From: an uncultured bacterium
GTDB taxonomy: Bacteria; Pseudomonadota; Alphaproteobacteria; SMXQ01
Reading direction: 5' to 3'
NCBI GenBank assembly: GCA_965369885.1
Contig: CBDUSV010000001.1
Span: 603-64,602, forward strand
DNA: 64,000 bases
In this document: positions 35,090-39,850 of the stretch, piece after piece
Position numbering within the stretch: the stretch's first letter is position 1
Layout of the letters: the number at the start of each line of letters is the position of its first letter
Made by a program: the position numbers and the translations under genes
The notes under the pieces: model-generated
The model's database searches: none
What the model was told of the DNA's origin: nothing
What the model saw: only the letters and a program-made list of their open reading frames with translations

Positions 35090-35269
35090 GGGTGGGGTCC
35101 AGATCGGTGCCGGAGAGGCTTAAATGCTGGGTAAGTCCTTACACCGGAAGAAATCTGGCATAAAGCTGGTCAATTGCCAAATTCGTTCATATATGGGGTA
35201 TTAGAATTATTTTAAATTGTTGCCTGGGCCCACCGGAAACCCGTAACATCCGCAGATATTGGGTCCATA

Positions 35270-36679
35270 ATGAGTGTAAGGATGAAGTCGCTTAATCCAT
35301 TGATGATTTCCGGGCGCGAAGCCTTGCCCCTGGTCGAAGGCGGCAAGGGCGTCGCCGTTTCCAATGGGGAAACCTCGGGCTTCTGGGCCGCCAGCGGCGG
35401 GGTGGGCACGTTTTCGGGCGTCAACGCCGATTCCTATGACCACAACGGCGATCTGATCCCGATCATCTATCGTGGCCGGACCCGGCGTGAACGCCATGAA
35501 GAGCTGGTGGCCTACGCCATCGAGGGCGGCATCACCCAGGCCCGCATCGCCCATGATATCGCCAACGGGGCGGGGCCGATCCACATGAACATCCTGTGGG
35601 AGATGGGCGGTGCCGAACGGGTCTTGAAGGGTGTTCTCGAAGGCGCCAAGGGGTTGGTCCAGGGCGTGACCTGTGGCGCCGGCATGCCCTACCGCATCGC
35701 CGAGATCTGCGCCAGGTTCGGGGTTCATTACTACCCCATCGTGTCTTCGGCCCGGGCTTTCCGCGCCCTGTGGAAGCGGGCCTACCACAGATTCTCGGAA
35801 TTGCTCGGCGGCGTGGTCTATGAGGATCCCTGGAAAGCCGGCGGTCACAACGGCCTGTCCAACAGCGAAGATCCCGATATCTTCGAGCCCCCCCTGCCAC
35901 GGGTGTTGGAATTGCGCGGCATGATGCGCGACTATGGCCTCGGCGACACCCCCATCGTGATGGCCGGCGGGGTCTGGTTCCTGCGCGAATGGCAGGACTG
36001 GATCGACAATCCCGAGCTTGGACCCATCGCGTTTCAGTTCGGCACCAGGGCCCTTCTTACCAAGGAGAGCCCGATCGCCGATGATTGGAAACAGAAAATT
36101 CTGAACCTTGAAGAGGGCGACATCTTTCTCAACAAGTTCAGCCCGACCGGGTTCTATTCATCGGCGGTCAACAACGATTTCCTCAAGGAGTTGAAGGCCC
36201 GCAGCGACCGTCAGGTCGCCTATTCCGTCGAACCCGTGGGCGAGCTCGACACTCCGTTCCCGGTGGGCGCCCGTGGCCGGCTGGTCTATCTCACCGCGTC
36301 CGACCGGGCCCATGCCCAGGGCTGGGTCGATGAAGGCTACACCGAATCGCTACGCACCCCGGATTTCACCCTCATCTTCGTCACGCCGAGGAAGGTCAAG
36401 GAAATCCGCAAGGATCAGATCGAATGCATGGGCTGTCTTTCGTCCTGCCGGTTCTCCAACTGGGCCCATAACGAAACCGGGTCCACCGGCAAGAAGACCG
36501 ATCCCCGCTCCTACTGCATTCAGAAGACCCTGCAGACCATCGTCCATGACGGCGATGTGGAAAACCAACTCATGTTCGCCGGCCACAATGCCTACCGCTT
36601 CAAGACCGACCCGTTCTATGCCAACGGCTTCATCCCGACGGTGCGCGAACTGGTGGAGCGGATCGAGACCGGTGATTGA
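35270..36679 (+). CDS. Nitronate monooxygenase / 2-nitropropane dioxygenase family (NMO-like flavin oxidoreductase, TIM barrel)
   Basis: The family assignment rests on overall sequence similarity and is tentative. Confidence 0.45.
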   Translation: MSVRMKSLNPLMISGREALPLVEGGKGVAVSNGETSGFWAASGGVGTFSGVNADSYDHNGDLIPIIYRGRTRRERHEELVAYAIEGGITQARIAHDIANGAGPIHMNILWEMGGAERVLKGVLEGAKGLVQGVTCGAGMPYRIAEICARFGVHYYPIVSSARAFRALWKRAYHRFSELLGGVVYEDPWKAGGHNGLSNSEDPDIFEPPLPRVLELRGMMRDYGLGDTPIVMAGGVWFLREWQDWIDNPELGPIAFQFGTRALLTKESPIADDWKQKILNLEEGDIFLNKFSPTGFYSSAVNNDFLKELKARSDRQVAYSVEPVGELDTPFPVGARGRLVYLTASDRAHAQGWVDEGYTESLRTPDFTLIFVTPRKVKEIRKDQIECMGCLSSCRFSNWAHNETGSTGKKTDPRSYCIQKTLQTIVHDGDVENQLMFAGHNAYRFKTDPFYANGFIPTVRELVERIETGD

Positions 36680-36717
36680 GATCGCGCTGATGAAAAGAAG
36701 TTTTTTAAGATTAACAT

Positions 36718-36757
36718 TGTTCCCCAAGGGTAGCTATTGTAGCGTTCCCAAAGGGGT
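36718..36757 (+). promoter_or_regulatory. Operator-like arrangement upstream of the Irr-like gene
   Basis: Direct repeats (GTTCCCCAAGGG and GTTCCCAAAGGGG) flank a palindrome (GCTA-ttg-TAGC). Confidence 0.3.
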
Positions 36758-36801
36758 TATTTTGGGGATTGAATCGACTGCGTGTTGAAGGGTAAATAGC
36801 C

Positions 36802-37221
36802 GTGGATCGTCCTTATAGTCATATCCTGGATCGTCTCAAGATGGCGGGCCTGCGCCCGACCCGTCAACGCCTGGCGCTCGCCAAATTGTTGTTCGATGGC
36901 GGCCAACGTCATGTCACGGCGGAGCAACTCCATAGCGAGGCGATAGGCCAAGGCATCCGGGTGTCCCTCGCCACCGTCTACAACACCCTCCACCAGTTCA
37001 CCACGGCGGATTTTCTGCGTGAGATCGTCGTCGATTCGGGGCGGTCCTATTTCGACACCAACACCACCGACCACTATCACTTCTTTTTCGAAGATACCCG
37101 TGAACTCAAGGATATTTCCAAGGATGCCGTGAGCTTCGCCCATCTGCCGAAGCCTCCCAAGGGCACCAACGTAAAATGCGTCGATGTGGTCATCCGCGTC
37201 GAAAATTCCCGAAATTCCTGA
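36802..37221 (+). CDS. Fur family transcriptional regulator, Irr/PerR-like
   Basis: The protein has a Fur-type winged helix and an H-Y-H motif (TDHYHFFFED) in place of the canonical HHDH. It lies upstream of rubrerythrin and an ICE-type box. The start is either 36802 or ATG 36841. Confidence 0.65.
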   Translation: MDRPYSHILDRLKMAGLRPTRQRLALAKLLFDGGQRHVTAEQLHSEAIGQGIRVSLATVYNTLHQFTTADFLREIVVDSGRSYFDTNTTDHYHFFFEDTRELKDISKDAVSFAHLPKPPKGTNVKCVDVVIRVENSRNS

Positions 37222-37256
37222 GCATTTCCTACCGGCCGAAAACGCCGTAAAGTTAG

Positions 37257-37273
37257 TTTAGAGGCGTTCTAAA
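37257..37273 (+). promoter_or_regulatory. Irr-box / iron control element (ICE)-like operator
   Basis: The sequence TTTAGAG-gcg-TTCTAAA matches the alphaproteobacterial ICE consensus TTTAGAA-N3-TTCTAAA at 16 of 17 positions. Confidence 0.55.
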
Positions 37274-37295
37274 TTATTGACTCGCAGTGTTGATC

Positions 37296-37314
37296 GGTCC
37301 ATATAGTATGGACC
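37296..37314 (+). promoter_or_regulatory. Perfect inverted repeat, candidate second operator upstream of rubrerythrin
   Basis: The sequence GGTCCATA-tag-TATGGACC has two 8-bp arms with no mismatches. Confidence 0.4.
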
Positions 37315-37383
37315 AGGGCTTTATGGCGTAGACCGATCCGATTCCGAGAACCAAACCATTTCAATGCGTAAAGGAGAATGAAA

Positions 37384-37800
<417 letters not shown>

Positions 37801-37898
37801 GAACGAAAGACCAAGTCTATTGATTGTGAAGAGGGGGGCGCAGATGCCCCCCTTCTTGTCAGTTCCCATCGCCACGGACGGTGAACCGAGAGGGTGAC

Positions 37899-39260
37899 AT
37901 GGTTGAAGGTGGCCTCAAGGCGCCGGTGCGCCATCCGCTCGATTGGCAGAACCCGGATTTCTTCGATGGGGATTTGCTCGACGCCGAATTGCGCCGGGTG
38001 TTCGACATCTGTCACGGCTGCCGGCGCTGCTTTAACTTATGCGACAGTTTTCCGCGCCTGTTCGATCTCATCGACGATTCAGATACCGGCGAGCTCGATT
38101 CGGTCGAGAGCCGGGATTTCGCGCCCGTCATCGACGCCTGCACCCTGTGTGACATGTGTTTCATGACCAAGTGCCCCTATGTGCCGCCCCATGAGTTCAA
38201 TCTCGATTTCCCTCACCTCATGTTGCGCGCCCGCGCCATTGATTTTGCCCGCGGCAAGGTTGGCTTCACCGCCCGCCAAATGACCGAGACCGACCGCAAT
38301 GGGCGTCTTGCTAGGTTTGCGGCGCCGCTGTTCAATTGGGCAACCCGGCGCGGCAACTGGCTGGTGCGGCCGATCCTGGAACTTATCGCCTCCATCCACC
38401 GCGATGTGGAACTGCCGCGTTTCCAGGCCGAGACCCTGATGGCGCGGGCCAGGCTCGGGGCTAGGGAAATTGACCGCACTGCCCCCGCCCAAGGCCGCAA
38501 GGCGGTGATCTTCGCCACCTGTTTCACCAATTACAACAACCCCAAGGCCGGCATGGCGGCGCTGGGCGTCTTGGCCAAGAACGGTATCGCGGCCGAGATC
38601 TCCTATCCCGGCTGCTGCGCCATGCCCCAGCTCGAACATGGCGATCTTGACCGGGTTGCCGGCCAGGCGCGCAAGGTGGCGGCCCATTTCAAGGACCATA
38701 TCGCCCAGGGCTATGACGTCATCGCCCTGGTGCCGTCCTGCGCCCTGATGCTCAAATTCGAATGGCCTTTGTTGTTGCCGGGTGACGAGGATGTCTTACG
38801 ACTCGCCGCCGCGACCCGCGATATCTGTGAATATGTCGTGGACATCGCCGCCAATGAAGGCCTGGCGGCGGGGCTTGCGCCCATCGACGGCGGTGTTTCG
38901 CTCCACATGGCCTGCCATGCCAGGGCCCAGAATATGGGCCACAAGGCGGCGGACATGCTGCGCCTGATCCCCGGCATGGTGCCGGACGTGGTGGAGCGCT
39001 GCTCGGGCCATGGCGGCTCGCTGGGGATTACCAAGGACTATTTCGAGACCGCGGTGAAGCTTTGCCAGCCGGTGGCGAAGCGCGCCGCCGGGCATGACAA
39101 CACTCATTTCTGTTCCGAATGCCCCTTGGCCGCCAAGCATGTGGTCCAGTGCATGGAAAGCGTGAATGGGGACGCCACCGGGACCAAAGAACTGAGCCCC
39201 AGCCATCCCATCGAGATCCTGGCCCAGGCCTACGGCATTGATCCGGACGGCACGCGGTGA
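37899..39260 (+). CDS. Fe-S oxidoreductase, HdrD/GlpC-like (2x[4Fe-4S] ferredoxin domain plus two cysteine-rich CCG domains)
   Basis: The protein has CxxCxxC…CP motifs (CHGCRRCFNLCDSFP, CTLCDMCFMTKCPY) and CCG-type motifs (YPGCCAMPQ, CSGHGGS, FCSECP). A GAGAGGG Shine-Dalgarno precedes ATG 37899. Confidence 0.7.
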   Translation: MVEGGLKAPVRHPLDWQNPDFFDGDLLDAELRRVFDICHGCRRCFNLCDSFPRLFDLIDDSDTGELDSVESRDFAPVIDACTLCDMCFMTKCPYVPPHEFNLDFPHLMLRARAIDFARGKVGFTARQMTETDRNGRLARFAAPLFNWATRRGNWLVRPILELIASIHRDVELPRFQAETLMARARLGAREIDRTAPAQGRKAVIFATCFTNYNNPKAGMAALGVLAKNGIAAEISYPGCCAMPQLEHGDLDRVAGQARKVAAHFKDHIAQGYDVIALVPSCALMLKFEWPLLLPGDEDVLRLAAATRDICEYVVDIAANEGLAAGLAPIDGGVSLHMACHARAQNMGHKAADMLRLIPGMVPDVVERCSGHGGSLGITKDYFETAVKLCQPVAKRAAGHDNTHFCSECPLAAKHVVQCMESVNGDATGTKELSPSHPIEILAQAYGIDPDGTR

Positions 39261-39850
39261 CAGCCTTGCCCCACCTCATCACCCGGGCCGACATCATGGA
39301 TATGGAGGCCTACGTCAAGGTCCGCGATGGGCGGCGTGCGCGCATCATCGAGATCAAACGCTTACGCCGTGTCGCCGTCGGGCCTTTCGCCACGTTCTTT
39401 TTTGAGAGTTTCGACACCATGTGGCATCAGATCCACGAGATGCTCTATGTTGAGAAGGGTGGTGAGGACCAGATCGAAGGCGAGCTCGAGGCCTACAACC
39501 CGCTGATCCCCAAGGGCCGCGAGCTGGTGGCGACATTGATGTTCGAGATCGCCGATCCGGAACACCGCCTGCGCGCCCTGGCCGGGCTCGGCGGTGTCGA
39601 GCACACGGTCAGCATTAGCATCGATGGTGTGGAGATTGCCGCCCAACCCGAAACCGACTTGGAACGCACCACCGCCGAAGGCAAAACCTCGGCGGTCCAT
39701 TTCCTGCGCTTTGCCCTATCGCCGGACGCGGCCGATAAATTCAAAACCCCGGATGCGCGGGTGGTGTTGGCCATCGGTCACGGGAACTATGCCCACATGG
39801 CGGTGTTGCCGGAACAAGTTCGCGCCGCGCTCGCCACCGACCTCGACTAA
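39257..39850 (+). CDS. DUF3501 family protein
   Basis: The 197-aa gene overlaps the Fe-S protein stop by 4 nt. This family is typically found next to CCG-domain Fe-S proteins and rubrerythrin. Confidence 0.5.
   Translation: MTALPHLITRADIMDMEAYVKVRDGRRARIIEIKRLRRVAVGPFATFFFESFDTMWHQIHEMLYVEKGGEDQIEGELEAYNPLIPKGRELVATLMFEIADPEHRLRALAGLGGVEHTVSISIDGVEIAAQPETDLERTTAEGKTSAVHFLRFALSPDAADKFKTPDARVVLAIGHGNYAHMAVLPEQVRAALATDLD

Follow-up and report, generated by a model that had tools for sequence, protein, structure and literature searches.

Genes and features at the irr-rbr locus

The DNA analyzed here, referred to as the window, is a stretch of 64,000 nucleotides (64 kb) from an uncultured alphaproteobacterium, and all coordinates refer to it. 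Two co-oriented genes, irr and rbr, are separated by a 162-nt spacer that holds both elements of interest, an Irr box and a perfect palindrome (37257 to 37314). The product of irr (36802 to 37221, + strand) is a 139-aa iron response regulator of the Fur family (Pfam FUR, 4e-19). It scored 203.5 bits against NCBIfam IrrA, where the cutoff is 150, and 182.2 bits against NCBIfam Irr, where it is 170. The rbr gene (37384 to 37800, + strand) encodes a rubrerythrin-family protein of 138 aa without a rubredoxin domain (Pfam Rubrerythrin, 9e-30). Its product reached 142 bits with NCBIfam Rbr, under the 200-bit cutoff, and orthologues at ∼90% identity were found to be widespread. A Shine-Dalgarno sequence, AAGGAG (37370 to 37375, + strand), was read from the sequence 8 nt 5' of the rbr start codon.

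The gene order (NMO-like)-irr-rbr-CCG-DUF3501 was found in most of 164 related loci from genomes and metagenomes. In the window, the NMO-like gene (35270 to 36679) precedes irr, while rbr is followed on the + strand by genes for a CCG-domain/GlpC-like Fe-S oxidoreductase (37899 to 39260) and a DUF3501 protein (39257 to 39850). The synteny of these two genes (37899 to 39850) with rbr is conserved. When the related loci were compared, no regulator gene other than irr was found to be conserved beside the operon. A G+C-rich hairpin with a perfect 8-bp stem, AGGGGGGC-gcagat-GCCCCCCT, followed by TCTTGT (37832 to 37853, + strand), lies in the interval separating rbr from the CCG-domain gene. It is a possible terminator or attenuator of rbr, in which case rbr would be largely monocistronic; the terminator scan left this hairpin unflagged.

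The usual upstream neighbor of irr was the NMO/FabK-like oxidoreductase (469 aa), which was 65 to 76% identical in approximately 50 loci. In L001 and L002, the closest relatives of the window, a divergent fabA-fabB pair replaces it. The neighborhood points to a recurring link of irr with fatty-acid or enoyl-reductase-type genes.

Six close relatives (L001 to L004, L165, and L166; Rbr 96 to 98% identical) were aligned over the whole irr-rbr spacer, giving a clade alignment of seven sequences with the window. The rbr AAGGAG was unchanged in five of these six relatives and displaced by a small insertion in L165. Metagenomes were also scanned with Irr, seeking intermediate relatives; the best match was 71% identical, and the scan yielded family-level data rather than a graded clade series.

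The region upstream of irr

Upstream of irr, a 12-nt direct repeat was observed, with the copies GTTCCCCAAGGG (36719 to 36730) and GTTCCCAAAGGG (36744 to 36755, + strand) being 92% identical. The first copy lies within a conserved block, TTAACATTGTTCCCCAAGGGTAGCTATTGTAGCGT (36711 to 36746, + strand), which also holds TAGCTAttgTAGC, contains the promoter-like TTAACA-18-TATTGT, and is the probable irr promoter. This block was unchanged in L001 and L002 except for A/G at 36716, despite the different upstream neighbor (fabA), while at the second copy both relatives read GTCCCGTAAGTG. Neither the block nor the repeat was present in 122 more distant irr loci. The repeat was rejected as a conserved regulatory site, with only the first copy and the promoter-like block being kept, and these only in L001 and L002. 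The arrangement would be best interpreted as the clade's irr promoter. The initial annotation had described the arrangement at 36718 to 36757 as related to the palindrome upstream of rbr. The direct repeat is real, but it does not resemble the rbr palindrome in sequence, and its second copy is unconserved.

An Irr box upstream of rbr

An Irr box (ICE), TTTAGAGGCGTTCTAAA (TTTAGAG-gcg-TTCTAAA; 37257 to 37273, unstranded), was assigned from its consensus match and conserved position. It agrees with the ICE consensus TTTAGAA-N3-TTCTAAA at 13 of 14 positions (1 mismatch) and is the sole site in the 64 kb with no more than one mismatch; a match as good was found in only 0.2% of equal-sized windows. 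Orthologous rbr upstream regions, 138 in number, were anchored on the ICE. In 96 of them, reduced to 81 representatives after removal of near-duplicates, an ICE with up to four mismatches was located 1 to 7 nt 5' of TTGAC within a rigid layout.

In the clade alignment, none of the 14 arm positions of the ICE was variable, while the central 3 nt varied. Invariant arms around a variable center are the classic footprint of a putative dimer-binding site. The prediction of positions 37257 to 37273 as an Irr operator is strongly supported, because irr is adjacent, the position of the ICE is fixed in approximately 80 lineages, and no arm position varies within the clade. An Irr-box-like element in the rbr upstream region had been proposed in the initial annotation, with conservation upstream of orthologous rbr genes as the test, and such conservation was found in approximately 80 independent lineages. 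This half of the earlier finding was right and describes known biology.

The probable core promoter of rbr

The ICE ends 3 nt 5' of a −35 hexamer, TTGACT (37277 to 37282, + strand). Across the family, TTGAC was found 3 to 7 nt after the ICE in 79 of the 81 representative loci, with a gap of 3 nt in 42 cases, 4 nt in 20, and 5 to 7 nt in 17, and none of its five positions was variable in the clade. The full layout, ICE / 3 to 7 nt / TTGAC / 16 to 17 nt / CCATAww, was defined from the 81 representative loci (92 non-redundant), and the spacer after TTGAC was G+C-rich. When the column profile was anchored on the −35, C-C-A-T-A-(T/A)-(A/T) appeared at offsets 22 to 28, equivalent to 37299 to 37305 in the window, where the −10 element reads CCATATA (+ strand; family consensus, CCATAww). 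Offsets 29 to 39, the columns of the right arm of the palindrome, showed a near-uniform base composition across the family.

The window promoter (TTGACT, 17 nt, CATATA) has its −35 and −10 within the spacing of 17 ± 1 nt. Written as aTTGAC-N17-CCATAT, it matches CTTGAC-N17-CTATAT, the alphaproteobacterial sigma-70 consensus from Sinorhizobium meliloti (PMC2873474), at 10 of 12 positions with identical spacing. The likeness to this consensus lies in the exact spacing and in a −10 position that is conserved across the irr-rbr family, whereas in the family the second base of CTATAT is more often C than T (CCATAw).

Transcription would start at approximately 37312, giving a 5' UTR of approximately 70 nt. 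Relative to this predicted start, the ICE is centered at approximately −47 and extends from approximately −55 to −39. Positions 37257 to 37314 would form the core promoter of rbr, possibly that of an rbr/Fe-S oxidoreductase/DUF3501 operon; this is part of a reading, with Irr as the single regulator and the palindrome as a product of chance, that we consider likely as a whole. The two elements had previously been placed in the rbr leader. By the predicted promoter, neither would be a transcribed leader element, since the ICE is 5' of the −35 and the palindrome runs from the −10 to approximately +3.

The sequence GACTC at 37279 to 37283, over the −35, is a GANTC (CcrM-type methylation) site. Among the representative promoters, the base following TTGACT was C, creating GACTC, in 23 of 28, compared with 11 of 53 otherwise, a count that ignores phylogenetic non-independence.

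The palindrome over the −10 element

The perfect 8-3-8 inverted repeat GGTCCATA-tag-TATGGACC (37296 to 37314, unstranded; arms at 37296 to 37303 and 37307 to 37314) begins 22 nt 3' of the ICE, as had been described, and its arms are 100% complementary around a 3-nt spacer. The left arm consists of the last 3 bases of the promoter spacer and the −10, with CCATATA forming its inner part (five bases), while the right arm covers the predicted start at approximately 37312. The dyad symmetry is promoter-proximal, spanning the −10 to approximately +3. The earlier statement that the palindrome does not resemble the Fur, PerR, or OxyR consensus held up, since it did not fit the consensus strings for Fur, PerR, OxyR, RirA-IRO, FNR/FixK, alpha-LexA, or IscR type 2. 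The best matches to these strings were no better than those in 5 to 99% of equal-sized windows, and none fell on the palindrome.

The 64-kb window contained 18 perfect inverted repeats when arms were set at 8 bp or more and loops at no more than 10 nt, compared with 16.7 ± 4.4 in Markov simulations, and the chance of one such repeat in a 160-bp spacer was roughly 4%. Further copies of the palindrome, which the initial annotation had proposed to seek by motif search, were not found in the 64-kb window, nor was another copy of TCCATA-N3-TATGGA with up to two mismatches (0.85 expected). Likewise, in the 164 loci neither the palindrome nor its core was found again, apart from the orthologous sites and L163. 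The core CCATA-N3-TATGG was without a match in 159 of the 164 loci. Its five occurrences in ∼750 kb of related loci were always at the rbr promoter position, four in the clade of the window and one in the unrelated lineage L163 (Irr 63% identical). At this position L163 has a 10-3-10 palindrome, CCGACCCATA-aac-TATGGGTCGG, of which its relative L160 carries an imperfect version. About one-fourth of the promoters have CCATA as the −10, and the chance of TATGG occurring 3 nt further on in one of them was estimated at ∼0.03.

A second 8-bp inverted repeat is present in the same region. Its left arm, GATCGGTC (37292 to 37299), overlaps the left arm of the palindrome, and its right arm is GACCGATC (37331 to 37338, unstranded). 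This repeat was lost in L003 and L165, and the clade alignment contained no compensatory changes for it.

Conservation of the palindrome in the clade

In the seven clade sequences, one of the eight positions of the left arm was variable, and five of the eight positions of the right arm. All eight Watson-Crick pairs were present only in the window. Counted contiguously from the loop, six pairs were present in L166 (TATGGATC) and in L003 (AGTCCATA/TATGGATC) and five in L001, L002, and L004 (TATGGGTC). In L165, with an Rbr that is 98% identical, TGTCTATC replaces TATGGACC, leaving one contiguous pair from the loop and four of eight overall. No compensatory changes were found in the palindrome pairs of the seven sequences. 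Because all six relatives carry T where the window has C37313, the perfection of the palindrome is a derived, window-specific feature resulting from a single-base T-to-C change at 37313.

The palindrome had been taken in the initial annotation to suggest dual control of rbr by a second dimeric regulator. In its most specific form, this reading makes the ancestral TCCATA-N3-TATGGA the operator of a clade-specific dimeric regulator, e.g., a peroxide or redox sensor, that represses rbr independently of Irr. The dyad does occupy a classic repressor position, from −10 to +3, a core of 5 to 6 bp is retained in six of the seven clade sequences, and the unrelated locus L163 carries CCATA-N3-TATGG at the corresponding position. 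As no match to the Fur, PerR, OxyR, RirA, FNR, LexA, or IscR consensus was found, any binder would not be one of those. However, half of this site coincides with the −10 box, whose conservation has its own cause, and the right arm, variable at five of eight positions, is missing from L165, in contrast to the invariant ICE arms. The palindrome is also missing in approximately 150 other orthologous promoters, has no second copy in the 64-kb window, and is at chance frequency, and irr is the sole regulator gene conserved in the neighborhood. We regard such a regulator as unlikely. It also appears rather improbable that the CCATA-N3-TATGG dyad is a real operator providing a second, peroxide- or redox-dependent input atop Irr, with retention in the clade and an independent origin or retention in L163.

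A real dimer operator would be expected to behave like the ICE; the palindrome does not, and it is thus not supported as an operator. With the −10 as one half-site, an unconserved right arm as the other, a frequency at the level expected by chance, and no further copies in the 64-kb window, the data give no support for a second regulator, and the proposal of dual control was not upheld. The palindrome instead most probably consists of the −10 box together with a fortuitously complementary, unconstrained start region.

Inverted repeats around the −10 across the family

In 8 of the 81 representative promoters, a perfect inverted repeat with arms of 7 bp or longer was centered on the −10, compared with 1.26 ± 1.08 in flank shuffles, and a left/right swap control gave 6 versus 0.92. 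Expressed as density, this was 8.6 per kb, approximately 2-fold over the same loci generally (3 to 5 per kb) and similar to the 5' UTR; the ICE bin reached 32 per kb. Lineage-specific inverted repeats over the −10 were seen in L009, L014, L032, L054, L108, L118, L139, and L160/L163, amounting to ∼10% of lineages. Their arms were 7 to 10 bp and their loops 0 to 15 nt, their centers varied by 10 nt, and their sequences differed between lineages.

The excess over both the shuffles and the swap control, with sequences that differ by lineage, is what would be seen if dyad symmetry at the −10 were a recurrent, sequence-independent structural feature, e.g., a supercoiling-sensitive cruciform or an aid to melting. 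The density, however, is only ∼2-fold above background and comparable with the 5' UTR value, ∼90% of the promoters are without such a repeat, and the loops (0 to 15 nt) and centers (shifting by 10 nt) are not fixed. We know of no mechanism of this kind for promoters like these and consider it very unlikely. The excess is a weak tendency and not evidence for a regulator. A family-wide −10 dyad was not adopted as the main explanation, the excess being only ∼2-fold over the local background.

RNA-level readings of the repeat

With irr and rbr co-oriented and only 162 nt apart, the repeat might act as a + strand RNA hairpin in read-through transcripts of irr, serving as a terminator, insulator, or processing site between the two genes. 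Read as RNA, two substitutions present in relatives, C37313->U and A37312->G, produce G.U pairs that keep a stem in six of the seven sequences, and the spacer was found to fold better than shuffles (z = −2.15). Against this, no compensatory double changes were observed, three other changes break pairs, and half of all transitions keep pairing by chance. The stem is not followed by a U-tract, the terminator scan found no terminator, and a transcript starting at the rbr promoter would include the right arm only. An Rfam scan of 36600 to 37950 at E ≤ 1 gave no match, and no covariation-supported structure was obtained (covariation term, +0.03 kcal/mol). A hairpin function of this type is highly improbable. 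The RNA-level reading was accordingly set aside as the main explanation, with covariation absent despite a G.U-containing stem in six of seven sequences, and the idea of an irr terminator was dropped, as the terminator scan found no site.

Other ICE-like sites

An ICE-like sequence with two mismatches, ATTAGAATTATTTTAAA (35200 to 35216, unstranded), was located 54 nt 5' of the NMO-like gene. It is followed by 3 nt and TTGCCT, the same layout as that of ICE, 3 nt, and −35 at rbr. In 11 other loci for which the upstream region of the NMO-like gene was complete, that region contained no ICE. On this basis ATTAGAATTATTTTAAA was rejected as a conserved target of Irr, and it may be specific to the clade or fortuitous.

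With up to two mismatches, an ICE was also found upstream of irr itself in 8 of 124 irr loci (L008, L017, L036, L063, L064, L101, L132, and L153), which suggests putative autoregulation of irr in those eight lineages. The window has no ICE upstream of irr.

Rodionov et al. (2006, PMC1698941) reported Irr and the ICE only in Alphaproteobacteria. An ICE-like 7-3-7 palindrome was observed 5' of an rbr gene with ∼88% identity in metagenome-assembled genome contigs labeled Gammaproteobacteria, Thiohalomonadales, or Sulfurifustis. It was found in L024, L030, L035, L038, L057, and L076, at 47 to 112 nt upstream of rbr, and further in L040, L056, L069, L081, and L084. The usual variant in these loci was TTTAGAC-N3-GTCTAAA, with no TTGAC after the site. 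Neither an Irr-like gene within 3 kb nor an adjacent regulator was found in the gammaproteobacterial-labeled loci.

Proposed control of rbr by Irr and comparison with known systems

Single control of rbr by Irr at the ICE is the best-supported model. Irr, encoded just upstream, would bind the ICE as a dimer, with a footprint reaching the −35; since the ICE lies next to the −35, this hexamer would fall within a Fur-type footprint. Bound in this way, Irr would control the access of RNA polymerase to the rbr promoter. From the tolerated gap of 3 to 7 nt, we infer that occlusion is favored over phase-dependent activation. By analogy with Bradyrhizobium and Rhodobacter, Irr would repress at low iron or haem, with release when iron, haem, or oxidants inactivate it; both the binding of Irr and the direction of regulation at rbr are predicted from such homologous systems.

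Irr is known to bind the ICE (TTTAGAA-N3-TTCTAAA) and to act negatively or positively according to its position (PMC1698941). It represses the ICE promoters of the rubrerythrin-like blr7895/mbfA at low iron, and in vitro binding to the mbfA and ccpA promoters has been shown for Irr of Rhodobacter sphaeroides (PMC3413700). In Pelagibacter, rbr mRNA was increased 1.57-fold under iron limitation (PMC2864753). Because this rise misfits simple repression by Irr, the sign of regulation is uncertain.

If the preferred reading is true, the locus represents a further clean case of the minimal Irr regulon, in an uncultured alphaproteobacterium, and not a new type of regulation. The fixed layout of ICE, 3 to 4 nt, and −35 in approximately 80 lineages provides a defined architecture in which to study the action of Irr from −47. 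On the same reading, chance can yield a perfect inverted repeat over a −10, and the conservation of both half-sites should be checked before a regulator is proposed.

As a 19-bp perfect dyad placed for steric repression, the palindrome resembles operators of the PerR, Fur, TetR, and MarR types that lie over the −10 and start. It differs from them in lacking half-site conservation among orthologues, a known consensus, a nearby cognate gene, and further copies in the 64-kb window. The ICE promoter, with its 7-3-7 palindrome and an Irr-type Fur-family regulator, is like those of blr7895/bfr in Bradyrhizobium japonicum and mbfA/ccpA in R. sphaeroides. Irr binding was shown in such homologous systems (PMC3413700) and is predicted for the ICE of the window. 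The R. sphaeroides mbfA ICE overlaps the transcription start (PMC3413700), while here the ICE is just 5' of the −35, at approximately −47. MbfA is membrane bound, and the target in the window is a soluble, erythrin-only protein of 138 aa. In common with the B. japonicum and R. sphaeroides systems, the target is a rubrerythrin-like oxidative-stress/iron protein. A minimal Irr regulon consisting of a rubrerythrin-like gene was predicted for Rhodospirillum, Magnetospirillum, and Pelagibacter (Rodionov et al. 2006, PMC1698941), and as in those predicted regulons, irr and rbr are adjacent.
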